Positions 14,754-37,662 of a stretch of 64,000 nt of DNA are shown here, piece by piece. The notes below the pieces were generated by a model, which ran no database searches, was not told where the DNA came from, and saw only the letters and a list, made by a program, of their open reading frames with translations. The DNA is from Dictyostelium discoideum (lineage: Eukaryota), in the NCBI GenBank assembly GCA_000004695.1, contig CM000151.3, positions 6,304,001 to 6,368,000 of the forward strand, in the 5' to 3' direction. The position numbers were made by a program, and so were the translations under genes. How positions within the stretch are numbered: position 1 is the first letter of the stretch; every line of letters starts with the position of its first letter.

Positions 14754-17098
14754 ATGAGTTATCCACCACCAGTAGGAGATTCAATTAAATTAAAGGTTCA
14801 AGCCTCAAATGATCCAGAAGAAGCTTTTACAAATAGAGCATATTTACCAATTTCATCATTCAGTTTTTTATTCCCAAATGTACAATCAAATCTTTATACA
14901 ACCAATACAAATTATATTAAAATTAGAGTTGGAGCAAATGAATATATTTTATCTGCATCGTAAGTAACATACAATATATACATACTTATATACATAAATA
15001 ATTTATAGATATATTATAATTTTAAAATTAAAATAAAAATAATAATAATAATAAATAATTAAATTAATTATTTATTATTTATAAAAGACCAAATAAAAAT
15101 ATGAAACCAGATTCAATTGCATTATCAAAAGCATTAAGAGGATGGATGTATGTTAGTAATAATGAAGAAGTTTATGTTGAATTTTATGATCCAAATCCAA
15201 ATATTTGTGGTTCAATGAAAGTTAGTATCGATTATTTAACCAAAGGTAAACAAGGACCAAAACAAGATTCACAAGAGATCATTGGTAAAATCATTGACAA
15301 TTTCAATAGTCAATACTTTACATTTGGTCAATTATTTTATATAAAGAATAGTAATTCAACATTTGAATTAAGAGTTGAAGCAGTTGAAACCAATGAAGTT
15401 CCAACCAAAGATAAAGGTTGGGCTATCATTTCACCAGCCACCAAGATAATTTTACAAAAAATGCCAGGATCATTGATTGATATCGAAACCAATGGACCAT
15501 TGGTTGTAAATCAAATTTTCACTTCAGATTGGGATTTCGAAAATATGGGTATTGGTGGTTTGGATGCAGAGTTTAGAGATATTTTCAGACGTGCATTCTC
15601 TTCACGTATTTTCCCACCAGCAATCGTAAAGAAATTAGGTGTCAATCATGTTAAAGGTATGCTTTTATATGGTCCACCTGGTACTGGTAAAACTTTAATC
15701 GCCAGACAAATCGGTAAGATGTTAAATGGCCGTGAACCAAAGGTTGTCTCTGGTCCATCGATTTTAAATAAATATGTCGGTCAATCCGAAGAGAATATTA
15801 GAATGTTATTTAGAGATGCAGAGATTGAACAAAAGGCAAAGGGTGATGATTCAGGTTTACATATTATCATTTTCGATGAATTGGATGCAATTTGCAAATC
15901 ACGTGGCTCAAGACAAGGCGATTCAGGTGTTGGTGATTCAGTGGTAAATCAATTATTAGCAATGATTGATGGTGTCGAATCTTTAAATAACATCTTGGTC
16001 ATTGGTATGACCAATAGAAAGGATATGATCGATGAAGCTTTACTTCGTCCAGGTCGTTTAGAAGTACACGTTGAGATCTCATTACCCGATGAACATGGTA
16101 GAGAACAAATCTTTAAGATTCATACCGCTAAAATGAGGGATCAAAATGCATTGGACAAAGATGTTAATCTCGCCAATTACGCTCATACAACTAGAAACTA
16201 TAGTGGTGCTGAGATTGAAGGTGTTGTGAAATCTGCTGCATCCTATGCTTTCAGTAGACAAGTCGATACTAAAAACATTAAAAACGTTGAAATCAAACCA
16301 GAGGATATTAAAGTTTGCGATCAAGATTTCAAGAGAGCCATCACCGAGGTCACTCCATCATTTGGTTCCACAGATAATCAATTCGAATCCTATGCAGAGA
16401 ATGGTATCATCAATTATGGTCCAGTCTTTGATAAACTCTTACAAAGTGGTAATGCCTTTGTTGAGCAAGTAAAGAAATCAAATAGAACTCCAATGATGTC
16501 GGTCCTCTTGTCAGGTAGACCAGGTTGTGGTAAATCTTCTTTGGCTGCGACCCTTGCCAAGAGTTCAGAATTCCCATTCACTCGTATCATTAGTCCAAAT
16601 GATTTACTTGGTTACAATGAATCTGCAAAGGCATCAAAAATCACAAAGGTTTTCGAAGACTCTTATAAATCTCCAATGAGTTGTGTCGTTGTCGATGAAA
16701 TTGAACGTCTCATTGAATATGTACCAATTGGTCCACGTTTCTCAAATCTTATCCTTCAAACTTTGGCAGTTCTCTTTAAAAGAACCCCACCAAAAGGTCG
16801 TAAACTTTTAGTGATTGCAACTACTTCCAATCCTGATATTCTCAAAGATATGGATATTATGGATTGTTTTGCTACAGTTTTATCCGTTCCATCAATCAGT
16901 ACCGCTAAAGAATTCCAAACCGTTTGCTTTGAACTTGGTTTCACTCAAAAAGAAGCCTCTGAAGCTGCCTCCTTCTTTACTTCACCAATCACTATCAAAC
17001 AAATCATTATGATTGTCGAAATGGCAAGACAAGAAGAAGGTAATTTCATTGATAACTTTAAAATGTGTTTAGAAGATTTTAATATACGTAATTTTTAA
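14754..17098 (+). CDS. nsfA: N-ethylmaleimide-sensitive factor (NSF), an AAA+ ATPase. Two exons: 14754..14959 and 15088..17098; 738 aa
   Basis: The NSF-N domain is followed by D1 ('GVNHVKGMLLYGPPGTGKTLIARQIGKMLNGREPKVVSGPSILNKYVGQSEENIRMLF...LHIIIFDELDAICKSRGS') and D2 ('LLSGRPGCGKSSLAA...CVVVDEIERLIEYVPIGPRFSNLILQTL'). These are near-identical in pattern to metazoan NSF. The intron runs from GTAAGT at 14960 to the AG at 15086-15087; it is phase 2 and restores a TCA codon. Confidence 0.9.
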
Positions 17099-17256: not shown

Positions 17257-20200
17257 TTAATCACTTGAATCACTTGAAATATCATCATCATCTTCTTCTT
17301 GTTCAGATTGTTCAGATTCTTGTAAACCATGTTGTTTTAATTTTTGTGAAGCATAATTTAAAGCCTCTTCGAAACGTTGAGATGGAGTTTCTTCATCAAT
17401 ATCTGATTCCTCTTGATTAGATTCTGTTTGTTTTTTCTTTGATTCATCGTCAGAGGTTTCAATATCTGAAGTATCTTGAGAAGGTGATTTTCTTTTTGGT
17501 GGTGATTTTTGTTTTGTGGTTGATTGGTCAGTATCTTTCATTTCAGTATCTGAAGTTTGTTGATTATTATCTTTTTCTTTTTCAATATTTTCCATTTCTT
17601 TATCTTGTGGTTGACTTGATTGACTTAATTCATCATCACCTTGTTGCTTAATGATACCACCAAAACGTATGAATCTCTCTTTTACTTGATTAAATTCAGC
17701 TGCTCTAAGAAGATATTCTTTATGAAGTTTTTCAAATATTTTCTTGTCATGTTTAAGTTTTTCAGAGGAATCAGCATTTGAATCTTGATTAGCCTCATCT
17801 TGAACCATTATAGCGCAGGCCTCTTCAGCTTTAGCCAAAGCTTTGAGAGCCCTCTTTTTAGCACGTTTAAATTCAAATGCGACGAGATGTTTATTTTCAG
17901 CAACACCCAAAACTGGTCTATCTTGATTAAACTCTTCTTCTGTAATACCTTGATAAGAGTAATCGAAAGCACTACCATTATCCAATTGTTTAATAACGTT
18001 AAGAGCATCTTCAGTTGAACCTGGTACTAACTTAGAACCACCTTTATTGAAAACAACAATCCAATTTTGATTAGCATCCATGACAAACTCTGGACCAAAA
18101 GTAGTGGCAATGAATTGAATCTCTCTTGAATGTTTACGAATCATCTTTGATACGGCTACTCTATAGTTATGATCGAGTGCAGCATCAATTTCATCTAAAA
18201 GATAGAATGGAGCAGGATCAGTACGTTGAAGTGCGAAAATTAAAGCCAAAGCTACCAAAGTTTTTTGACCACCACTTAATTGTCTCATTGAACATGGTTC
18301 ATGACCTTCACCAAATGAAACTTGAATACCAATACCAGTGAAGGTTAATAATCCTTTTGGAGTTTCACCATCGGCCCATTCTTTTGGATCTTCACCCTCG
18401 CCTTCATCTTCGTCCATTTGACGTTTCATTACTAATTTAGCACTGCCACCTGGAATCAATTCTTTAAATACTTGAGTGAAATTCTTTGCGACACCACTAA
18501 AAGTTCTAGCGATAGCTTCATCTTTTTTATTATCAAGTGTTTTAATAAGTAATTGAATTGAAGCATTGGATTCATAAAGTTCATCTCTTCTTGCCTCTAA
18601 ACTATTGTATTGATTTGTAAAACTATTGAATTGATCATTTGCTTTTTGATTTACATGTCTCAATGAAGCCAATGATTTATTGATCTTATTTAATTCTTCA
18701 ACTGATTGATCTTTATTATATTTCTTCAATTCTTCAAAATTGAATCTATCACCTTTTGATAGTACTCTTAGCTGTTTAGCATCTCTAACTTTATTAAAAC
18801 TTTGAATTTGTGCAAGGAGGGATTCCATCTTTTTACCATCGGCAACCAATTGATCAGCGATTGTAGAGGTTTGTTGTTTCAATGCATCGATTGATACTTT
18901 AATTGGTTTAATTTCAGCGTCTTTTTCATTCAATGATTGAACCAATGATTCTAATTTCTCACGAACACCATCAATCTCTATATTGATCTCATCGATTTCC
19001 TTTTGTTTAAGTTCAATTTGTAATTTAGAGTTTTCAGGATTAAGTGATTTAATCTCACCTTCGATTTCCATTAAACGTTTACCATAGTTTTGATTGAGTT
19101 GATTGGTCATTTGATTCTTTCTAGATTGAAGTTTCATAACGTCTGAAGAGATTGAAATCTTTTGTTCCTTTAATTGAATCGATGATTCACTCAATGTTAA
19201 AAGTAAATTACTCTCTTCTTCAGTTAATTTAGTATTGAATGCTGTATTGATTTGTTTTTGATAACCATCGATAGTATCTTTACAATTTTGAATATCAATC
19301 TTTAATTTCTTTAAGATGGTTTGTTTCTTCTCAAGAATTTCAATGTACATAGTACGTTCAGAGATGATTTTATCCAATTCCACTCTACTATTATCATTGT
19401 TTGATAAGATTTTATTCTTTTCATCCTCTTTGGTTCTAATGGTTTTTTGAATGGATAAAAGAGATGCTTGAAGTTTCTCCAATTCAGATTCCTTCTCAGT
19501 TAATTGAGTTTGAAGTTGTTGATATTGTTGACGCCAATGTTTAATTTGTTGATAACTAGAGAGTTTTAATTTCTTTTTACTATAGTAACCACCGGTTACA
19601 GCACCTTTTGAATGGAAAACATCACCTTCAAATGTAATACAATCGACATGACTTGATTTTCTAACTTGTTCAGCTGTGGCTTCATCTTTACAGATTAAAG
19701 TTTTACCAAATACCAATTTCATTGCCTCTGTATAGATTGGATCGAATGAGATCACCTTAATCAATGGACAAACTAAATCATTCTCTAGTATTGGGAATTT
19801 TGGTGGTTTAGTTCTTACACGATTCAATGGAATGAATGAAAGACGACCAATGTTTTCAGTGTTTAAGATCTCCAATATCTTTGAGGCGGTATCATCAGTG
19901 TCGACCACCACATGGAATAAACCATTGCCACCTACAACCTCCAATGCTAAAGTTGCCTCTGGCTCAACGATATCAAAGAGTTCAACCAATGGACCATGAA
20001 TACCCTTGATTTTACCCTCTTGTCTAATTTGATTCAATCTTGTCAAACCCTCACTCAATGGACGATTCATAATGGTTTGAAGGTTTCTTTCTGCTTTCTT
20101 CCATTCATTTCTATGCTCTGTTAGATTGGATTTCATTTCATTGATCGATTGGAAAGTTGAGGAAACTCGTTGTTCAATTTGATCTTTCTCCAACTTTAAT

Positions 20201-21661
20201 TCATGAACTCTCAATTCTGCTGTCTTTACAATCTCTGCTTCTTTATCTTTTGAAGCCATACTATTATCAAATTGTTTACCCTTTGATTGCTGAATTTGTT
20301 TCATATCCTCTACATCCTCCTCCAATGATTGAGCTTGTTGTTCATATTGGTTAACTATATCCTCAAGTTTTGAACTTTCATCACCCAAATATTTATCTCT
20401 CTCTGTCTTTGATTTAAATTGAAACATACCTTGTTTAACATACAATTCTTGTAAATTTCTTTCAGTACTTGACAATTTATTATCAATATCATCCTCTTGG
20501 CCTATTAACTCCTCTAGTTTTGGTTTAATGATTTCAATCTCTTTCTCTAATTTCTCTTTACTACCACTCAATAAATCTTGTTCCTTTTGTAACTTTTCCA
20601 ATTTAGCTTGTTCCTTTGATAATAACTTTTTAAAATGTTTTTGTTGTATAACTAATTGTGCTTTTTGTTTATCAAATACTTCATTTAATTTTTCTACCAT
20701 AATTTTTTCATTATCAATTTTTTTAATTTCACTTAAAAGTTTATTAAATTTACTTTCATCCTCTTTAAAAAGAAATAAATAATATTAGTATATATATAAA
20801 TTATAAATATTTAAAGTAATAAATAATAAATAAATAATTACTTTTTAATTCATCAGTAAATCTTTCTAATTTTTTAGATTCTTTTGAAGAATGAATTAAA
20901 TATTTTTCTTTTTCTTTTTCAAGATCTAGAATTCTATCATTTGATTCATTTGCTTCTAAATGAATGATATAGGCTTCAAATTGTTTTTTCATTTCAATTT
21001 GAGTTTGATATAATTGTAATTCTTTACGTTCTTTATCTAATACTTTGATACGTTCATCAATGTATTTTAGAAATTCTTCAATCTTTATTGATTTACTCTC
21101 AGACTCTATCATGATTGCAACAGACTCTCTCTTACGTTCTTCATAAACGGTTGCACCTGCTACCTCTTTTAACATATCCAATCTATCAGAATCTTTCATT
21201 AATGCTAATGTATTGATTTTACCTTGTTGTACGATATAGTATGGATTACTACTTGAGAAACCGGCTGCTTCAAACATATTTCTAACATCTGCTTTAGATA
21301 ATTTATTATTACCAATACTAAATTCATCTTTTGATGTACCAAATGTTCTACGTAATGAAAATTCAGTTTTATCAATCTAAAATAATAATAATAATTAGAG
21401 ATTATTTTAATTTTATTAAAAAAAAAAAAAAAAAAAAAAAAAACTTACAGGGAATCTATGATCACTATTATCAAATACAATCTCTACATAACCAGTTTGC
21501 ATTGTATTACCACCATAACTGTGTAATAGTTTTAATCTATCTTCTGAATTATTACCAACATTAAGATCACCTAATAGAAATCTAATTGCTGCAAATAAAT
21601 TACTTTTACCTGCACCATTTCTACCAGCTAGTATTTTATTTTATTTTATTTTTTAAATTAA

Positions 21662-22679: not shown

Positions 22680-23530
22680 ATGGAAAAATTTCAAAGAGAA
22701 TTAACAGATCAAGCAATTAAAAAGATTGTTTCAACATTAAGATCAATTTTATATAGAATAGAAACTAAAGACTGTAAAGATGTTGTTGGTTTATTAGAAC
22801 CATATATGGATGAAGAATCTTATCAAAATATTAGAGAGACATTTTTAAGATATCAAGAGAAACATAGATTAAATGAATTTGCAGATGATGAAGAGGATAT
22901 TTTAGAAGATGAAGAAGAGGATGAAGATGAAGATAATATAAATAAAAATATAGATGATAACACCACCTCCACCACCAACAAATGTGGTGTTAATGGCATT
23001 GAAAATATATCAAATAAATATTTATTACAAATTCAAGATGTTGCAGCAAGATTGGTTTCATCATCAACTGCATCAGCATCAACTTCAAATGGTAGTGGTT
23101 CCAATGGTGAAAGTGGCACCACTCGTTATAATAGAATTGCAGATAGACAATCACGTGAAAATAGCTCACAAAGCTCAAATGGTGGTGGTGGTGGTGGTAG
23201 TGGTGAGAATGGCACACGTAAAAAGAGAAGAGGTGCTTCAAAGGGATTCCCATTGAATTGGGGTCTCATCATGTCAATGGCCTCAAATATCACACTCGAT
23301 CAAGTTCAATCAATGCTCAATGTACTCATTATGGTTTTATCTCGTACTCCAATCAACGTACTCTTCAAACAATTCCATGAATATAAATTCATCATCTCCT
23401 CTGTTTTCGATCTTTTAAATGCAATACTTCGTGGTGATATCAAAGATATTGGCACTTGTCTCATCATTGCTGTCATTGGTGTCATTCGTTTCTCTCAACG
23501 TAAAAATTTAACTTTAATTACAAGTATGTA

Positions 23531-23565
<35 letters not shown>

Positions 23566-23810
23566 TTTGTAATTTAAAAATAACTTTTTATTAATAAATT
23601 TTTAATTTTTTTTTTTTTTTTTTTTTTTTTTTAGCTTTGGAAGTTGCAAAATATCTTTACAATTCTGGTAACAAAAAGAAGTTTGGTTTAATCAGATCTG
23701 TTTCATTGGTTGCTTTCCTTTCCAACCTTTTCAAACTTGTAAATCCACCACCAGTAACTCCATTAGATGTTATACAATTAGTTAAATCCCAAATTCAATC
23801 AAGATTATAA
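22680..23810 (+). CDS. Uncharacterised protein with an acidic D/E run, a Gly/Ser-rich linker and a helical C-terminal region. Two exons: 22680..23523 and 23635..23810
   Basis: The long ORF has Dictyostelium codon usage. A GTATGT donor sits at 23524 (phase 1) and an AG acceptor at 23633-23634 after a poly-T tract. The joined frame runs to TAA at 23808-23810. No family could be recognised by eye. Confidence 0.5.
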
Positions 23811-23883: not shown

Positions 23884-24018
23884 CAAATTTAAGAGATCCA
23901 TTTAAAAATAAGAAAAATAATATTAAATTTTAATAAAATCTTTTTTTAAAAATACCAAATTAGATTTATGAATTTGTGATTTATATATATATATTTTTTT
24001 TTTTTTCTTTTTTTAAAA

Positions 24019-24125
24019 AAATAAGTTTCCAATTGGTCGGGTATTCATCGACTTAATAATCTTAGAAAAAAGAAAAATAAGTTTCCAATTGATAGGGTAT
24101 TCATCGACTTAATAAACTTAGAAAA
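24019..24125 (+). repeat. Two tandem copies of a roughly 51-bp unit ('aaataagtttccaattgRtMgggtattcatcgacttaataaWcttagaaaa'), about 170 bp upstream of GTPase-like paralog 1. Also a 29-bp direct repeat 'aaaagaatttagatttttaaaaaaaaaaa' at 24189 and 24243
   Basis: This is a direct reading of the plus strand. The units differ at 3 positions, and a third degenerate copy ('aaataaagtttcca') lies at about 24168. Confidence 0.7.
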
Positions 24126-24287
24126 CTAAAATTTTTATAAAAAAAAAAACTAAAATTTTTAAAAAAAAATAAAGTTTCCATAGAAAAAAAAAGAATTTAG
24201 ATTTTTAAAAAAAAAAAAAAAAAAAATATAAATAGTTAAAAAAAAGAATTTAGATTTTTAAAAAAAAAAAAACATTTTAATTTTAAA

Positions 24288-25647
24288 ATGTCTTCAAATA
24301 CTCAAACTGTTCCTATAAATCAAACTCAATTTTCACACCCTCCACCGCCTCCCAGTAATTTTGGTTGGATATTTGCATTATTTGGTGCTATAATTGGTAT
24401 TCCATCTTCAATTAGAAATTTAGCAATTAAATTGATTCTAACACTTATTTTTGTTCCTTTGCTAACAATAATTGCAATACTAAATCCATCATTACAATTA
24501 TATTTAACAGAAAGAAAGATTAGTATATGTTATTACTGGTCGTCTCCATGGTTTTGTACTTCCCCAAAACAACTTTTACCAATGAATTATAGTGTTATAA
24601 TTGATATTAAATCAATTTTGTCACTTAAAGATGGATGGGAAATAGTATCAGATGGTGGGCAATTTTCAAAAAAATTTTTAAACCAAGATGCTGAATATCA
24701 AAAAATATTAATAGCTATAACAGGGGATTATAATAGTGGTAAAACTTGGTTTTTAAATAATTTAGAGAATACTAATTATCAATCTTCATACCAAAATGCT
24801 ACACCTGCATTCTCATTTGTTGAATCATCAATTTCTCCCTATGTTTATATGGATACTCAAGGTTTAAAACGATTAGCATCTTCTTCAATTCGTGATGATA
24901 GCAGTAGACATAGTATCAAGGATATCAAAGCCCTTGATAGTTTGGTTTCAGATTCATACAATGTTCCTAGCATTATTTTTGAAGTTAGAGATACTGGTAA
25001 TAATGATGATTATTGTACTCAGGAACAAAGACATGAAGAGTATTTTCAAGATCAAGTTATTCCAAAAAAAGTTGTTGTTGTTCATAATTTTAAAAATTTG
25101 GAAACAATATCTGAAGTTGAAAAATACATTCGTGACGACATTATTAATCCTGAAATTGGGGGTCAATTAGTCATTAGTTCAACTCCAGGAACCATTGGTT
25201 GCCAATACTGGTATGTTGGTAGAATTTACCATTTCGTTGTTGCTAAAGGAGGATCAAAAGCAGGAAAATTTTATAACAAATGTACATTTGATCTCATTAG
25301 ATCAACTATTCTTACCAATCAAGCTTATGTACCAAAAATAAATATTTTAAATTCTCTCATAATAAATATAGAGCAATCTCTAAGAAATAATTTAAGAGAT
25401 CCAAATTTACCAAAAGATGGATTTGTAAATGTAAAGAAGGATTCATGGAAACTCTTTAGTTTTGTAAGAAATATTTATAATCAATTTTCTTCCAAACCAG
25501 ATCCTGATGAACCAATTGACATTGAAACTAATCCATTTAAATTAATAATAGAAAATAACAAAATTAAATTAACCAACTCTTCATTTGATTTGGAATTTGC
25601 TTTTAAAGATAGCTGTGGATTTAAAAATATTGATTTTAATCCACAAG

Positions 25648-25688
<41 letters not shown>

Positions 25689-26094
25689 TTTATAGATTTT
25701 ATTTCTCAAACATATTAAATACCACTAACTAATTCAATTTTATTTTTTTTAGTGTGACGTAACTTTTAATGAACTTGAAAATAATTTCGGAATTACATGT
25801 GATCTTCCAAATTCATATATAAACTGGAGTTGCTCAAAAAACAATCCTAACATAGTTTTTCTCTATTATGAAAGAAAATCTCCAACATATTCAACCTCAC
25901 ATATTAAAAATAAAATTAATCGTAGAACATATATTAAACATAGAAAATATTTTGTAATTCCAACAAAGCATTGGATTACTTGTAAAAGTTTAATTTCAAC
26001 TGCTGTATATAAAGATGGTACTGCCCATGTATCACTCTCTGAAGATAGTACTGTTGTTGCTGGGTCTCCATTCCCAAAAGATGATAATAATTAA
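24288..26094 (+). CDS. Paralog 1 of a tandem family: N-terminal Pro-rich segment plus a TM helix, then a P-loop NTPase domain with GBP/atlastin-like motifs. Two exons: 24288..25646 and 25753..26094
   Basis: The domain carries Walker A 'AITGDYNSGKTWFLNNLEN', 'YMDTQGLKRL' (DxxG) and 'IIFEVRDTGNN' (RD motif), in the order and spacing of GBP/atlastin G1-G3-RD motifs (compare 'GKSYLMNKL', 'DTEG/DTQG', 'RDF/RDW'). The intron runs from GTAAGT at 25647 to the AG at 25751-25752 and contains a (TAT)n run. The exon 2 product 'CDVTFNELENNFGITCDLPNSY...' is conserved with paralog 2. Confidence 0.6.
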
Positions 26095-26313
26095 AATTAA
26101 AATTTTAAATAAACTAAAAATTCAAATAAATTAAAAAATATAAAAACAATAAAATTTAAAAAAAAAAATAAAAAAAAATGTGTAAATTTTTATTTTTATT
26201 TTTTTTTTTAAAAATTAAAAATTTGATTTAACCAACTTTAATATTAATTTAAATTTTTAATTTAATTTATTATATCAATAATTAATCATTTGATTTGGTG
26301 TGGGTCTTGGTCA

Positions 26314-26344
<31 letters not shown>

Positions 26345-26377
26345 AAAAAAGCCCAGGTTCTATATAAACAAAATTTC

Positions 26378-26430
26378 TGAATTTGCAAATTTATAGTAGC
26401 TCTAACAGGTGATTACAACTGTGGTAATTA
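26378..26430 (+). pseudogene. Roughly 50-bp relic fragment of the same GTPase-like family, covering the Walker-A region
   Basis: '...tagtagctctaacaggtgattacaactgtggtaa...' is homologous to 'ttagtggcattaacaggtgattacaacagtggtaaaac' (ALTGDYNSGKT) in paralogs 1-3. It sits in the intergenic region with no open frame. A flanking motif 'aaaaagcccaggt' recurs at about 26348 and about 26682. Confidence 0.4.
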
Positions 26431-27144
26431 ATTTAGAAAAAAAAAGAATTATAAATTTCTAATTGTTGATGGTTTGGAAAAACCCAAAAAAAAAAAAAAA
26501 AAAAAAAAAAAAATAAATCTGTTTCTCTTAGTAAAAGTTCCCATTTTTTTTATTTCTCAAATTTATGAAATATTTTTTTTAAACTCATTTCTTAAAAAAC
26601 AAAAATGCTAAATTTTCCATATCTGCCTTATCTATTATATTTTTTGTTTTTTATTACCTTTTAAACTTTTTTTTTTAAAAAGCCCAGGTGGTATTTTATA
26701 AACAAAATTAATTCTGGTGTATCGAAAACTTAACTTAATAAAATATATTTATGCATTTAATTTAAAATCTTTATCTCTTTTTATTTTTTTATTTTTTTAT
26801 TTTTATTTTTGTTTTTTTTTAGTTCCAAAATAAATAAATACAGATAATTGATCACCATATTAAAAACATTTGAATTTTTAATAAATTTTTTGTAAAATTT
26901 TACAATAATTCTTTTTAAAATCCCATCAAAGTAGCTCGGAATTATCTAAATAATTTTTTTTTTTTTTTTTTTTTTTTTTCGTAAAAAAATAAGCATTTAC
27001 AAGATATTTGTTATTGATCCAAAAATTTTTTTAAAAAAAAATAATTTTTAAAGCAATCTTTTGAAAAAAAAAAAAAAAATTTCAAAGCAAACTTTTGAAA
27101 AATAAAAAAAAAAACGAAACCAAACAAGCAGTATAACATTTAAA

Positions 27145-28882
27145 ATGCCTGATTCTCCTCTCACTGAACCTCGACAGCCTCCACAGCCTCCACAGCCTCC
27201 ACATTTTTTAAGCTGGAGAAATTTTTTAAGCTTTAGAAAATTTATAAGCTGGAAAAATGCTTTTTTAATTTTAATTCCAATTTTATTAGCGATAGGAATA
27301 GGAAACTATGAACAAATAATTCAATATTCTTCTGGCCCTATATTTATTGAAAAATTTGATCAATATAATGTTATAATTAATATTAAATCCATTTTGGCAA
27401 TAAAAGAAGGATGGGGAATAACAACCGATGGTAGCCAGTTTGCATCTATGTTTGTAAATCAACAATCTGAATACTCAAAATTATTAGTGGCATTAACAGG
27501 TGATTACAACAGTGGTAAAACTTTTTTGATCAATAACTTGGAAAACAAGAATTTCCCATCTTCATATCAACATGCAACACCTGCATTTGGGTTTATACAA
27601 TCATCAATTTCAGATTATATTTATATGGATACTCAAGGTTTGAAAAGATTAGCATCATCTTCACTTGATTCCGATAGGGGTACCCATAGCATCAAGGATA
27701 TCAAAGCCATTGATAATTTAATCTCTCAGTCTTATAAAGTTGCAAATTTAATTATCGAAGTCAGAGATACAGGTAACAATGAGGATATTTGCAATACTCA
27801 ACAAAGACATGCCGAGTACCTCCAAGATAGCAAAGCCAATGGATATCAAATCCCTGTTATGGTTGTTGTTGTCCATAACTTTAAAAACATGAGAACCGTT
27901 GCTGAAGTTGAAAAATATATTCGTGATGATATTACAAATCCAGAAATCGGTGGTCAAGAAAAAGAAGTTGATTCAAAAACTGGAGATAAAAAATGCAAAT
28001 ACTGGTATGTTGATAGCGTATTACATTATGTTATTGCCCAAGAAGGCTCTGAAGCTGGTAAAGTTTATAACAAATGTACATTTGATCTCATTAGATTAAA
28101 AGTTTTACAAGATCAAGGTGGTATTCCAAAAGTCAACTTTTTAAATAAACTCACTCTGGTTATGGAACAATCTTTAAGAAATTATATTAAAGATCCAAAT
28201 GTATCAAAAGATTCATTTGTAAGAGTAAAGAAGGATGAAACAATCGTTAGTTATGCAAGTTATCTCAAGTCTTTTTTTTCTTCCAAATCAGATCCTGAAA
28301 AACCTGATCAACCTACCCTTATTGAATCACATCCATTCAAAGTTTCAATACAAAATAACAAAATTAAATTGGTTAACTCTACTTTTGATTTACAATTTTC
28401 TTATAAAGATTGTTGTGGATTTAAAAACATTGATTATTCTCCACAAGTATGTATTATTATTATTTTTTATTTTTTTTATTTTTTTATTTTTCAAAAAAGA
28501 TATCAATTACAACATACTAATTAAATTTTATTATTATTTTAATTTTTAGTATGATGTAATCGAAACTTCAGATTCTTTTTCAATAGTAGTTGATGCACCA
28601 AATTCAATTGTCAATTGGTTTTGCTCGCCAAGTGAATCACACACAATTAGTTTTTATATTGAAAGAAAATTCCCAACATATTTAAGTTCTCATCTTAGAA
28701 GAAATATTAATCCAAGAACATATGGTGAAATCAAGAAAGAGTTTCAAATTCCATCTAGACCATGGATTGACTGCCTAAGATTAATTCCAACTGCTAAATA
28801 TATAGACGGTGTAGCATTTGTATCACTAACTAAAGATAGTACTGTTATTGGTGGTTCTCCATTTCCAGAAGATAAAAAATAA
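27145..28882 (+). CDS. Paralog 2 of the GBP/atlastin-like P-loop family (intact). Two exons: 27145..28446 and 28550..28882
   Basis: 'PQPPQPPQPPHF' N-terminus, then a TM helix, 'ALTGDYNSGKTFLINNLENKN', 'YMDTQGLKRLASSSLDSDRG', 'IIEVRDTGNNEDICNTQQRH' and 'VMVVVVHNFKNM'. The intron runs from GTATGT at 28447 to the AG at 28548-28549. The exon 2 frame runs to TAA at 28880-28882. Confidence 0.6.
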
Positions 28883-29534
28883 TATTTTTTAAATTGATTA
28901 AATAAATAATAAAAAAAAAAAATAATAAAAAAAAATAAAATAAAATAAAATAAAAAAAAAAAAAAGTAATTATTAAATTACCCTTTATTGTATATAATAA
29001 AATTAATAAATCTAAAAGGATTGGTTTGATTTTTTTTTTTTTTTTTTTTTACTTTTTTTTTATTTTCATAACAACTCCCCTTATTTTTATTTTTTTATAA
29101 TTAAAAAAAATTTGGTTATTAGTGATAGGTGATCTCTATTTTTGGATTTTAAAAAAATAGTGTTTTTCCTTTATCCATTTTTGGATAAAAAGTATCTTTT
29201 TAGATTATCTTTATCCATCCTCATTTTTTACCCTTTTGAAAATTTTTTTTTTTTTTTTCAAAGATATTTTTTCAATCATAAAAAAAAGTGTTTTAATTTT
29301 ATTAACTAATGTTTTTTTTAAAATCTAATCAAATTTTCCAAATTATATTATTTTTTTATTAAAAGATATTTTTTCAAAAGATATTTGTTTTGATTAAAAA
29401 TTTTAAAAATAAAAAAAAAAAAAATTTTAAAAATTGTTTTTTTTTTTTTAAGACAAAAATAAGATTTTATTTTTTTTTTTTTTTTTTAAAAAGTAAAAAA
29501 ATTTTGAGACTGATTCAACAGTATTATTTTTAAA

Positions 29535-30801
29535 ATGTTACCGCAATCCATGTCTCCTCCCTCTCAACCATCAGGGTTTTATCCCTCTCAACAGCCTGAA
29601 TCTTCTTCCTCTCAAAGTCAACCAAATCCTCGTATTTCAGAATCACAATCTAAGTCTTCTTCCTCTAAAATCCAATCTCATAATTATCTGAGCTGGAAAA
29701 ATTTTTTTTATTTTATTTCAATACTTTTAATTTCAATTTTCACATCAGTATTTTTAGTTGGGAATTTATATCCAGAGTATCAACCATATACTCCATTTCT
29801 TTGGCAGCCTATTTGCATCTATGTTTATAGACCTACAATCTGAATACCCAAAATTGTTAGTGGCATTATCAGGTGATTACAACAGTGGTAAAACTTATTT
29901 GATGAATAAGTTAGAAAACAAGAATTTCCAGTCGTCATATCAATATGCAACACCTGCATTTGGATTTATACAATCATCAATTTCAGATTATATTTATATG
30001 GATACTCAAGGTTTGAAAAGATTAGCATCATCTTCACTTGATTCCGATAGGGGTACCCTTAGCATCAAAGATATCAAAGCCATTGATAATTTAATCTCCC
30101 AAACTTATAAAGTTGCAAATATTATTATTGAAGTAAGAGACACAGGTAACAATGAAGATATTTGCAATACCCAACAAAGACATGCCGAGTACCTTCAAGA
30201 TAGAATAACAAGTGAAAACCAAATCCCTGTTATGGTTGTTGTTGTCCATAACTTTAAAAATTTAAAAACAATATCTGAAGTTGAAAGATACATTCGTGAT
30301 GATATTACTAATCCTGAAATTGGTGGCCAATTAACAGTTAGTTCAAAACCTGAAACCAAAGGTTGCAAATGCATGTTGATAGCATATTACATTATGTTAT
30401 TGCCCAAGAAGGTACTGAAGCTGGTAAACTTTATAACGAATGTACATTTAGCCTCATTAGATTAAAAGTTTTACAAGATCAAGGTGGTATTCCAAAAGTT
30501 AACTTTTTAAATAAAATCATTCAAATCATGGAACAATCATTGGGAAGTTATATTAAAGATCCAAAAGTATCAAAAGATTCATTTGTAAGAGTAAAGAAGG
30601 ATGAAACAATTGCAAGTTATTGGGGTTCTTTTTTTTCCAAAACGGAACCTGAAAAACCTACTCTTGTTGAAACACATGAATTTAAAATTACAATACAAAA
30701 TAACACAATTAAATTGATTAACTCTTCTTTTGATTTAGAATTTTATAAAGATAGTTGTGGATTTAAAAGCATTGATTATTCTCCACAAGTAAGTATTATT
30801 A

Positions 30802-30887
<86 letters not shown>

Positions 30888-31279
30888 TTTTCGATTTTAA
30901 TTTTTTAAAAAAAGATATTAATTACAATACTAATCTAATTTTTATTTTTAGTATGATGTAGTTGACAAACCAGATTTTTTTTCAATTGTATATGATGCAC
31001 CAAATTCATATGTACAATGGCTTTGCTCACAAAATAATTCTCACATAATTGTTTTTCAAAGTGTAAGAAAATTCCCAACATACTTACGTTCTGATCTTAG
31101 AAGAAATATTTATCCAAGAACATATGGTAATAACAAAAAAGAGTTTCAAATTCCATCTAAACCAGGGATTGACTGTGCAAGATTATCTGTGACTGCTAAA
31201 CATATAGACGGTGTAGCATTTGTTTCTCTCGCTAAAGATAATAATGTTATTGGTGGTTCTCCATTTCCAAGAAGATAAA
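29535..31279 (+). pseudogene. Paralog 3 of the GBP/atlastin-like family, disrupted by frameshifts
   Basis: The sequence is about 85% identical to paralog 2, but coding homology is split over three frames (ORFs 29535..29843, 29758..30465, 30363..30908). An ~80-bp deletion plus a point change near 29790-29830 removes the 'NIKSILAIKEGWGITTDG' segment and shifts frame. A 4-nt deletion near 30370 ('tgcaaatgcatgttgatagc' versus 'tgcaaatactggtatgttgatagc') shifts frame again. A 1-nt insertion near 31268 ('ccaagaagataa' versus 'ccagaagataa') truncates exon 2. The intron carries an expanded (ATT)n tract. Confidence 0.55.

Positions 31280-35086: not shown

Positions 35087-37662
<2,576 letters not shown>

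Follow-up and report, generated by a model that had tools for sequence, protein, structure and literature searches.

The described proteins closest to those treated here belong to several groups. The GBPs (GBP1, GBP2 and GBP5; PF02263) have a large G domain with an N-terminal β extension, a P-loop helix reading GKSYLMNKL, an Arg-Asp G4 motif in the context TLRDF, a C-terminal helical domain and a CaaX box. In atlastin, Sey1 and RHD3 a large G domain is membrane-anchored, in atlastin by two transmembrane (TM) helices and an amphipathic tail that lie C-terminal to a helical bundle. The fourth position of the P-loop is an arginine finger in GBP1 (R48) and atlastin (R77), and an Asn at the same position is the hallmark of cation-dependent GTPases (MnmE, Era, EngA, FeoB), which, with EngB, are activated by dimerisation. 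In all TRAFAC GTPases the G4 motif comes after β5, in GBP1 at a distance of 84 residues from G3 (D97 to R183/D184). Small heat-shock proteins (sHSPs, HSP20) have subunits of 12-43 kDa with a conserved I-x-I tail, and in Get3d/All4481 of cyanobacteria and plastids a Get3-like ATPase carries a C-terminal crystallin domain. SMG9, a soluble subunit of the SMG1 kinase complex of nonsense-mediated decay, binds ATP through an altered and rearranged G4/G5 region (PMC7334022). For Dictyostelium discoideum, a 2021 review gives at least eight dynamin-superfamily proteins and a single GBP homologue, gnbp (PMC8565484). This study concerns a tandem array of three genes and a gene relic (positions 24,019 to 31,279) in a stretch of 64,000 nucleotides, here called the window, from chromosome 2 of D. 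discoideum AX4 (assembly GCA_000004695.1, contig CM000151.3, positions 6,304,001 to 6,368,000 of the forward strand), the genes of which are not included in that review.

The array consists of three head-to-tail genes on the plus strand of an AT-rich window: paralog 1 (DDB_G0276097, 566 aa), paralog 2 (544 aa, with 100% identity to DDB_G0276219 over 100% of its length) and a decayed paralog 3 (DDB_G0276095 in the public annotation). Each protein is arranged as a Pro-rich N-terminal tail, one or two TM helices, a G domain of ~275 residues, a helical linker of ~90 residues and an alpha-crystallin domain. We consider it probable, at roughly 0.6, that these are membrane-tethered proteins that join an NTPase of GBP-like fold, probably cation-assisted and activated by dimerisation, to an sHSP-type domain for assembly or client binding, and that paralog 1, at least, takes part in a response to bacterial or membrane stress. 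An earlier note on this DNA, made from the letters alone, had described the array as one of novel membrane-anchored P-loop proteins with GBP/atlastin-type G motifs; it missed both the alpha-crystallin domain of exon 2 and a very large family of relatives outside the dictyostelids.

The predicted alpha-crystallin (sHSP-type) domain of each copy, as judged from profile searches and structure prediction, is encoded exactly by exon 2. The whole-family profile already matched HspA (7.9e-6), Hsp16 and Hsp26, and a profile made from the last ~120 residues of four Dictyostelium and 24 distant sequences matched HspA at 5.8e-10, Hsp16 at 3.3e-7 and 14 further sHSPs. An AlphaFold2 (AF2) model of paralog 2 residues 428-544 had a predicted local distance difference test (pLDDT) score of 83.6, and some of the relatives carry the IMG pipeline label 'HSP20 family molecular chaperone IbpA'; Pfam HSP20 scored one of 54 family members. 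The 'PG/PN' and 'DG(V/I)L' landmarks of sHSPs are kept, but the conserved I-x-I tail motif is absent, and the Dictyostelium clade has instead an invariant GSPFP tail. Unlike the sHSPs with their small subunits, the domain is here the C-terminal module of a multidomain protein of ~550 residues and ~62 kDa. Get3d/All4481 was among the matches and provides an architectural precedent, although its NTPase is of the SIMIBI class (ArsA/Get3), not TRAFAC, and the NTPase parts are non-homologous.

The G domain can be assigned with moderate confidence to the GBP/atlastin/SMG9 'large G domain' type of the TRAFAC class, by profile comparison and predicted structure. The AF2 model, based on a 16-sequence alignment, had a mean pLDDT of 60.4, with 70-89 in the G core, and showed the order β1(113-119)-P-loop-α1-β2-β3(158-164)-α2-β4(202-208)-α3-β5(239-246)-α4-hairpin(270-289)-β6(292-298)-α5, followed by one further helix. 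Two additional strands ahead of β1 (76-79 and 90-94) form an N-terminal hairpin extension. With ~275 residues, this β extension, an insert, and GBP, atlastin and Sey1 among its neighbours, the domain agrees with what is expected of the large G domains of the GBP/atlastin branch (~280-300 aa). Foldseek placed GBP5 first and SMG9 second, and the top ranks in the fold and profile searches were taken by SMG9, RNF112, GBP1/2/5, atlastin and Sey1. Against PDB sequences the family profile matched GBP2 at 9e-7 and GBP5 at 6e-6, ahead of Der/EngA (4e-5 to 2e-4); a single-sequence phmmer search of the same sequences gave only matches with E>0.2 (Rab7, mitofusin). The earlier view that these are not canonical Ras/EF-type GTPases was borne out, the family being a divergent one with a P-loop GTPase fold. 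A kinase or ABC-type P-loop, either of which would have placed the proteins in an unrelated family, was rejected, as no search pointed there. On the C-terminal side of the G domain the model has two helices, a low-confidence linker and the β-sandwich of the crystallin domain, and no α-helical middle or effector domain.

Motifs were counted in a 54-sequence alignment, of which 50 sequences are from outside Dictyostelium, and residue numbers are those of paralog 2 (Table 1). GDYNSGKT, YMDTQGL and EVRDTG occur in all three copies, and the earlier note had taken them for G1, G3 and an 'RD' motif standing in for NKxD. The last of these identifications did not survive. The position of R207 is V, I, L or F in 50 of the 50 distant homologues and never Arg, that of D208 is Gly in 46 and Asp in four, and the conservation of the RD motif on which the note had staked its reading is thus missing in the relatives. 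Because the G4 of TRAFAC GTPases follows β5, whereas EVRD lies at the end of β4, EVRD was rejected as G4 and the site was assigned to the His-Asn pair right after β5, which is 82 residues from G3. What had been noticed was a real likeness to GBPs, matched to the wrong residues. It lies in the large G domain with its N-terminal β extension, in a P-loop helix reading GK[ST](Y/F)L(M/I)N(K/N)L, in a G3-to-G4 spacing of ~82-84 residues, and in a G4 context of hydrophobic strand, basic residue, Asp or Asn, and aromatic or aliphatic residue (VVHNF here, TLRDF in GBP). The G3 motif DTQG is the same as in atlastin. In contrast, the arginine-finger position of GBP and atlastin is here the conserved Asn (N122) of GxxNxGK[ST], G4 is His-Asn and not Arg-Asp, and Pfam GBP (PF02263) gave no match at E<=10 for the two intact window proteins. 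The array proteins also differ from GBPs in having an N-terminal TM anchor, and a crystallin domain where GBPs have the C-terminal helical domain and CaaX box. In atlastin the membrane helices are C-terminal, whereas here the TM segment is N-terminal and the C-terminus a β-sandwich. Since they have neither an RD G4, nor the P-loop arginine finger, nor a helical C-terminal domain, the proteins should not be filed as GBPs or atlastins. SMG9 shares a non-canonical G4/G5 but has no TM segment or crystallin domain, and identity to it is ~11%.

Table 1. Coordinates in the window of the genes of the array, their remnants, and the domains and motifs of paralog 2.
Feature	Position	Strand	Conservation or basis
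Paralog 1 exon 1 (DDB_G0276097): Pro-rich tail, TM, G domain, linker	24288..25646	+	
Paralog 1 intron, GTAAGT...TAG, phase 0, includes (TAT)14 (25652-25693)	25647..25752	+	
Paralog 1 exon 2: predicted alpha-crystallin domain and conserved GSPFP tail, including stop codon	25753..26094	+	
Relic of a fourth copy, P-loop fragment with in-frame stops	26351..26434	+	tblastn, DNA comparison
Paralog 2 exon 1 (DDB_G0276219)	27145..28446	+	
Paralog 2 predicted TM helix, ~residues 38-56, AFLILIPILLAIGIG	27256..27312	+	Kyte-Doolittle; dictyBase note
Paralog 2 predicted large G domain, ~residues 74-347	27364..28185	+	
G1 P-loop GDYNSGKT	27499..27522	+	G119, G124-K125, S/T126 invariant; N122 in 51/54
G2 switch-I threonine T145	27577..27579	+	53/54
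G3 DTQG	27628..27639	+	D162 53/54, G165 51/54
'RD' R207-D208, Dictyostelium-specific, end of β4	27763..27768	+	AF2 model, alignment
Assigned G4 position H244-N245, right after β5	27874..27879	+	54/54, then F or L in 54/54
β6/G5-region signature HxxxAxEGSEAGxxYN	28024..28071	+	H294, N309 54/54; A298, S/T302, A304, G305, Y308 nearly so
Paralog 2 intron, GTATGT...TAG, phase 0	28447..28549	+	
Paralog 2 exon 2: predicted alpha-crystallin (sHSP-type) domain and GSPFP tail, including stop codon	28550..28882	+	
Paralog 3 N-terminal remnant open reading frame: Pro/Ser-rich tail and TM, ends in stop at 29843	29535..29843	+	
Paralog 3 G domain and linker, split over two frames	29803..30788	+	
Paralog 3 intron with (TAT)31 (30794-30887)	30789..30951	+	
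Paralog 3 exon 2: predicted alpha-crystallin domain	30952..31278	+	70% amino-acid identity to paralog 2

The family to which these proteins belong is much larger than the array. A first homology search recovered 11 dictyostelid proteins (D. discoideum, including isolates other than AX4, D. cf. discoideum and D. citrinum), together with metagenome relatives of ~25% identity in which the whole core is present. When a profile was searched exhaustively, the number of cluster representatives rose to 2,533 at E<=1e-3, with 443 of them reaching E<=1e-30, and in one search the relatives reached 2,030 matches. The homology search found no AX4 members beyond the three genes of the array, and no named eukaryote outside the D. 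discoideum complex was among the matches listed in the homology and 54-sequence profile searches. Aligned sequences define the family by a G-domain and crystallin core with GxxNxGK[ST], a switch-I Thr, DxxG, His-Asn at G4, and HxxxAxEGSEAGxxYN after β6. There is no dedicated Pfam model for it, and neither a description of the family nor a paper on a GTPase-crystallin fusion was found in the literature searched, in which the three gene identifiers led to one paper, on intron gain (PMC4683709). The predicted GTPase-crystallin architecture with a His-Asn G4 is likewise covered by no curated family.

In the distant relatives coiled-coil N-termini take the place of the TM segment. The contigs that carry them have 19-22% GC and are mostly 2-6 kb long, with a few of ~10-12 kb; their sources are a metagenome of the cow rumen (PRJEB21624) and further ENA and JGI metagenomes. 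Some relatives are from assembly GCA_016648615.1, in which the neighbours are eukaryotic genes (RabGAP-TBC, PP5, aspartic protease). Given the cow-rumen origin, the low GC content, the gene-sized contigs and the eukaryotic neighbours, the hosts are probably rumen ciliates; no telomeric repeats were seen on the two relatives' contigs examined. One cow-rumen contig (L001, from ERZ931368; 5715 nt, 22% GC, no telomeric repeats at its ends) carries the homologue P0203 next to a 924-aa gene without a Pfam match on record and a Cys-rich zinc-finger-like fragment. A distant member, P0132 (781 aa), has an extension of ~330 residues after the crystallin domain with a hydrophobic segment at its end, and so other lineages may also have added membrane anchors, at the opposite end of the protein.

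The Pro-rich N-terminus and TM segment of the array proteins, which had been noticed earlier, were evident from Kyte-Doolittle hydrophobicity (19-residue window) and agree with the dictyBase descriptions of 'one' and 'two transmembrane domains' quoted in PMC6902447. Paralog 2 has a single strong hydrophobic segment at residues 34-59 (peak 1.97), and paralog 1 a strong one at residues 47-65 (peak 2.72) with a weaker stretch at 25-40. Orthologues of paralog 3 from other strains (P0003, P0004) peak at ~2.5, and their TM sequence, FFYFISILLISIFTSVFL, is also present in paralog 3 of the window. Hydrophobic segments are confined to the N-terminal part (residues ~25-75), and a C-terminal TM pair in the style of atlastin and Sey1 is absent. 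The DNA encoding the N-terminus of paralog 2 (27169-27258) is built of micro-repeats: a 9-bp unit, CCTCCACAG, in 3.9 copies encodes PPQ, and an 18-bp unit in 3.1 copies encodes the basic FLSWRN/FLSFRK/FISWKN directly ahead of the TM segment. Applied to the flanking charges of paralog 2 (+3 before the TM segment, -1 after it), the positive-inside rule predicts an N-in/C-out orientation; the paralog-3-type proteins have +2 against -1 or -2, and those of paralog 1 type have no charge bias at the TM segment. Five cysteines (paralog 2 residues 216, 311, 424, 459 and 509; ~27790-28774) are invariant in the Dictyostelium clade, with Cys in 0/50 of the distant homologues, and one N-x-S/T sequon (N411) is kept in 8/8 sequences. 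Charge bias, clade-specific cysteines and sequon together hint at a lumenal or extracellular orientation.

Gene models, tblastn and DNA comparison upheld the earlier count of two intact copies, one decayed copy and one relic with a shared two-exon structure. The exons proposed there for paralog 2 are exactly those of DDB_G0276219. The genes, which the earlier note could not match to any named Dictyostelium gene, are already annotated as hypothetical proteins, one with the label 'G domain-containing'. The reading frames of paralogs 1 and 2 are free of internal stops, and each intact copy has one phase-0 GT...AG intron at the same site, directly 3' of a '...PQ' codon. Searched with paralog 2 by tblastn, the window yielded three copies (E = 1e-141 to 1e-148) and one short fragment, and nothing further. 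At the nucleotide level, paralogs 2 and 3 agree at 80.6% over 1707 nt, and paralogs 1 and 2 at 71.5% over 1629 nt. The locus, with two working genes, one that is decaying and one fragment, is a tandem array of recent origin that is confined to the D. discoideum species complex.

Paralog 3, which spans 29535-31278, is without the conserved segment of the hairpin ahead of G1 (residues ~55-97 of paralog 2), is frameshifted by a 4-nt deletion at 30370/30371, and has an altered C-terminus because of a 1-nt insertion at 31269. The public model of DDB_G0276095 (438 aa) gets past these lesions by means of extra introns and thereby omits the TM segment and the invariant H294-N309 motif. In orthologues from other strains (P0003) the 30370 site is intact and the frame reads through, so the deletion would be specific to AX4 or an error in the reference. 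The third intron of the DDB_G0276095 model has been described as the source of a newly gained intron in DDB_G0275263, and RNA-seq reads across the source region were not found in that study (PMC4683709). Over 53 nt, the core of the relic (26376-26427) matches the P-loop DNA of paralog 2 (27466-27518) at 83% identity (E 2.6e-8), and it translates as 'VALTGDYNCGN*'. The sequence just 5' of the relic P-loop ('aaaaagcccaggt...taaacaaaat') is present twice, at 26336-26375 and 26667-26709 (86% over 43 nt), and the DNA separating paralogs 1 and 2 may thus hold traces of more than one lost copy.

Two further tandem repeats, possibly duplicated promoter elements of the inducible genes, lie in front of the intact genes, one of 56 bp (1.9 copies, 94% matches) at 24017-24125, just upstream of paralog 1, and one of 34 bp (2.4 copies, 89%) at 27033-27114, immediately upstream of paralog 2. 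Upstream of the array are genes for a CDC48-like double-AAA ATPase (15101-17098; Pfam AAA 1.4e-52, CDC48_2) and an SMC protein (17257-20700; SMC_hinge 1.4e-27), housekeeping neighbours that gave no clue to function, and the open reading frames at 22680-23594 and 36028-37662 had no Pfam match.

The rapid divergence that had been reported for this tandem array with its pseudogenised member is real. Ratios of non-synonymous to synonymous substitution (dN/dS, by the Nei-Gojobori method) were 0.49 for paralog 1 against 2 and 0.52 for paralog 2 against 3. Within the latter comparison the ratio rises from 0.30 (first half of the G domain) through 0.66 (second half and linker) to 0.98 (crystallin exon), and 'same-species' orthologues from other strains are only 87-88% identical. 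Such a tempo fits diversifying pressure and relaxed constraint alike. Published RNA-seq data, suggested earlier as a check for induction by infection, showed that DDB_G0276097 is up-regulated with Mycobacterium marinum in two studies, in the second on a sheet that we assign to this bacterium. In the first (Kjellin et al. 2019; PMC6902447, Additional file 2), the log2 fold changes at 2.5 h post-infection were +2.20 for DDB_G0276097 (adjusted P 9.4e-8) and +1.13 for DDB_G0276219 (adjusted P 0.039); neither gene responded to Legionella at 1 or 6 h (file 6). In the second (Lamrabet et al. 2020; PMC7078664), DDB_G0276097 changed by +1.36 with Klebsiella pneumoniae (KpGe; adjusted P 0.0045; Table S1), by +2.73 in the sheet of Table S2 that we take to be Bacillus subtilis (adjusted P 1.6e-7), and by +2.11 in the sheet taken to be M. 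marinum (adjusted P 6.8e-5). The former sheet was so assigned from its place after the Bs header and its many proteasome genes, the latter because its ~113 up-regulated genes match the count stated for Mm. In the same tables, DDB_G0276097 has a low expression (AveExpr 1.2) and is co-induced with hspF, ubiquitin and proteasome genes. Within the parts of the two sets of tables that were used, DDB_G0276095 appears in none and DDB_G0276219 in those of PMC6902447 alone. An immune or stress role is plausible.

Several other explanations of these observations have to be weighed, two of which concern the nature of the G domain. It could be an enlarged, cation-dependent TRAFAC GTPase of the Era/EngA/MnmE/EngB (MMR_HSR1) type fused to a crystallin domain, with the likeness to GBP a product of convergence or of the modelling. 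Among Pfam models, MMR_HSR1 alone comes near its threshold for the window proteins (21.5 and 16.8 bits, under the cut-off of 21.9; Roc and Dynamin_N were likewise sub-threshold), it is matched by 44 of the 54 family members where GBP is matched by five (best E 6.9e-7), GxxNxGK[ST] with its conserved Asn is the P-loop signature of that group, and Der/EngA appears in the profile search. We nevertheless consider this unlikely, as GBP2 and GBP5 are the best profile matches, there is no NKxD motif, the domain, at ~275 residues, is ~100 residues larger and has the N-terminal β-hairpin extension and insert of large G domains, and the G3-to-G4 spacing is close to that of GBP1. Rather more doubtful is a scaffold in which the G domain holds a nucleotide, binding ATP or failing to hydrolyse in the manner of SMG9, the protein acting mainly as a membrane-tethered, sHSP-like holdase. 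SMG9 is a close structural match and itself binds ATP by way of an altered G4/G5 (PMC7334022), G4 is His-Asn and neither NKxD nor RD, the crystallin domain is well supported and has its precedent in Get3d/All4481, and paralog 1 rises together with hspF, ubiquitin and proteasome genes. On the other hand, G1, the switch-I Thr and the DxxG of G3 are near-invariant across a very divergent family, which argues for retained hydrolysis, and between paralogs 2 and 3 constraint is weakest in the crystallin exon.

The remaining two explanations concern where and against what the proteins act. As cell-autonomous immunity GTPases they would be functional analogues of the IRG and GBP clusters that assemble on pathogen vacuoles, and the tandem, rapidly diverging paralogues with a pseudogene do resemble IRG/GBP/GIMAP-like clusters. 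The relic, the low identity between strains, the dN/dS of ~0.5 (0.98 in the crystallin exon), the GBP-like fold, and up-regulation with M. marinum in both of the RNA-seq studies, which are independent, as well as with B. subtilis and K. pneumoniae (B. subtilis and the second M. marinum result on the sheets so assigned), are all in keeping with such a role. Yet the fold changes are modest and fall within a general stress, proteasome and ubiquitin response, Legionella induces neither gene, relaxed constraint in a decaying family explains a high dN/dS equally well, and the published inventory of dynamin-superfamily proteins and GBPs in D. discoideum lacks these genes (PMC8565484); a dedicated immune function seems unlikely to us. 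Least probable is a type II topology of the Dictyostelium members, with lumenal or extracellular G and crystallin domains stabilised by disulfides and with the nucleotide cycle lost or repurposed. The positive charge on the N side of the TM segment in paralog 2 and the paralog-3-type proteins, the five cysteines absent in 50/50 distant homologues and the conserved sequon would all be accommodated, but the P-loop, Thr and DxxG are intact in the Dictyostelium clade, the distant relatives have N-termini of a cytosolic, coiled-coil type, the paralog-1-type proteins show no charge bias, and charge rules are weak predictors.

The membrane-tethered, GBP-like NTPase coupled to an sHSP-type domain remains the reading that we prefer. 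As G1, G2 and G3 are intact, the G domain would still bind and hydrolyse nucleotide, probably as a GTPase activated by nucleotide-dependent dimerisation, and the P-loop Asn may recruit a monovalent cation (K+ or Na+) in place of the arginine finger, by analogy with MnmE, Era and FeoB. The base specificity is doubtful, because the Asp that reads guanine in NKxD or RD is here Asn; SMG9, taken as the nearest structural neighbour, binds ATP. The crystallin domain would provide contacts for a dimer or oligomer, or bind clients, so that the whole protein may form a nucleotide-gated, membrane-tethered assembly or holdase module, with paralog 1 being turned on by bacterial and membrane stress (M. marinum, B. 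subtilis). Several observations weigh against this. A profile built from the Dictyostelium sequences only had zero matches to PDB sequences at E<=10, so the links to GBP and sHSP depend on transitive homology by way of the distant relatives and on predicted structure; the full-length AF2 model is of only moderate confidence; and the Pfam evidence from the window proteins is a sub-threshold match to MMR_HSR1, which is also the commonest match of the family. The TM charge bias and the Dictyostelium-only cysteines would point to a lumenal or extracellular G domain, which is hard to reconcile with a GTPase cycle in the cytosol. Paralog 1 is only modestly induced and its expression is low, and Legionella does not induce it.

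A wider proposal, which as a whole we regard as rather improbable, is that the family, with its thousands of relatives from hosts that are probably rumen ciliates, forms a new GBP/atlastin-like branch in which the Asn P-loop, His-Asn G4 and crystallin domain make up a nucleotide-gated, sHSP-like assembly machine, and that in the D. discoideum complex it gained the membrane anchor and a part in the reaction to bacteria that damage the vacuole. As the family is seen in no other named eukaryote, transfer from a ciliate-like lineage may have brought it to this complex. The patchy distribution, in the D. discoideum complex and probable ciliates, raises this small question of gene transfer, and vertical descent with loss is equally compatible with it.

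If the predictions are correct, nucleotide-driven dimerisation and sHSP-type oligomerisation would be linked in one protein, which raises the question of whether the nucleotide state gates the assembly of the crystallin domain. For the amoeba itself, should the fold assignment hold, these genes would represent an additional, lineage-specific and infection-responsive GBP-like set beyond its single GBP, in a host that is genetically tractable and used for studies of mycobacterial infection.

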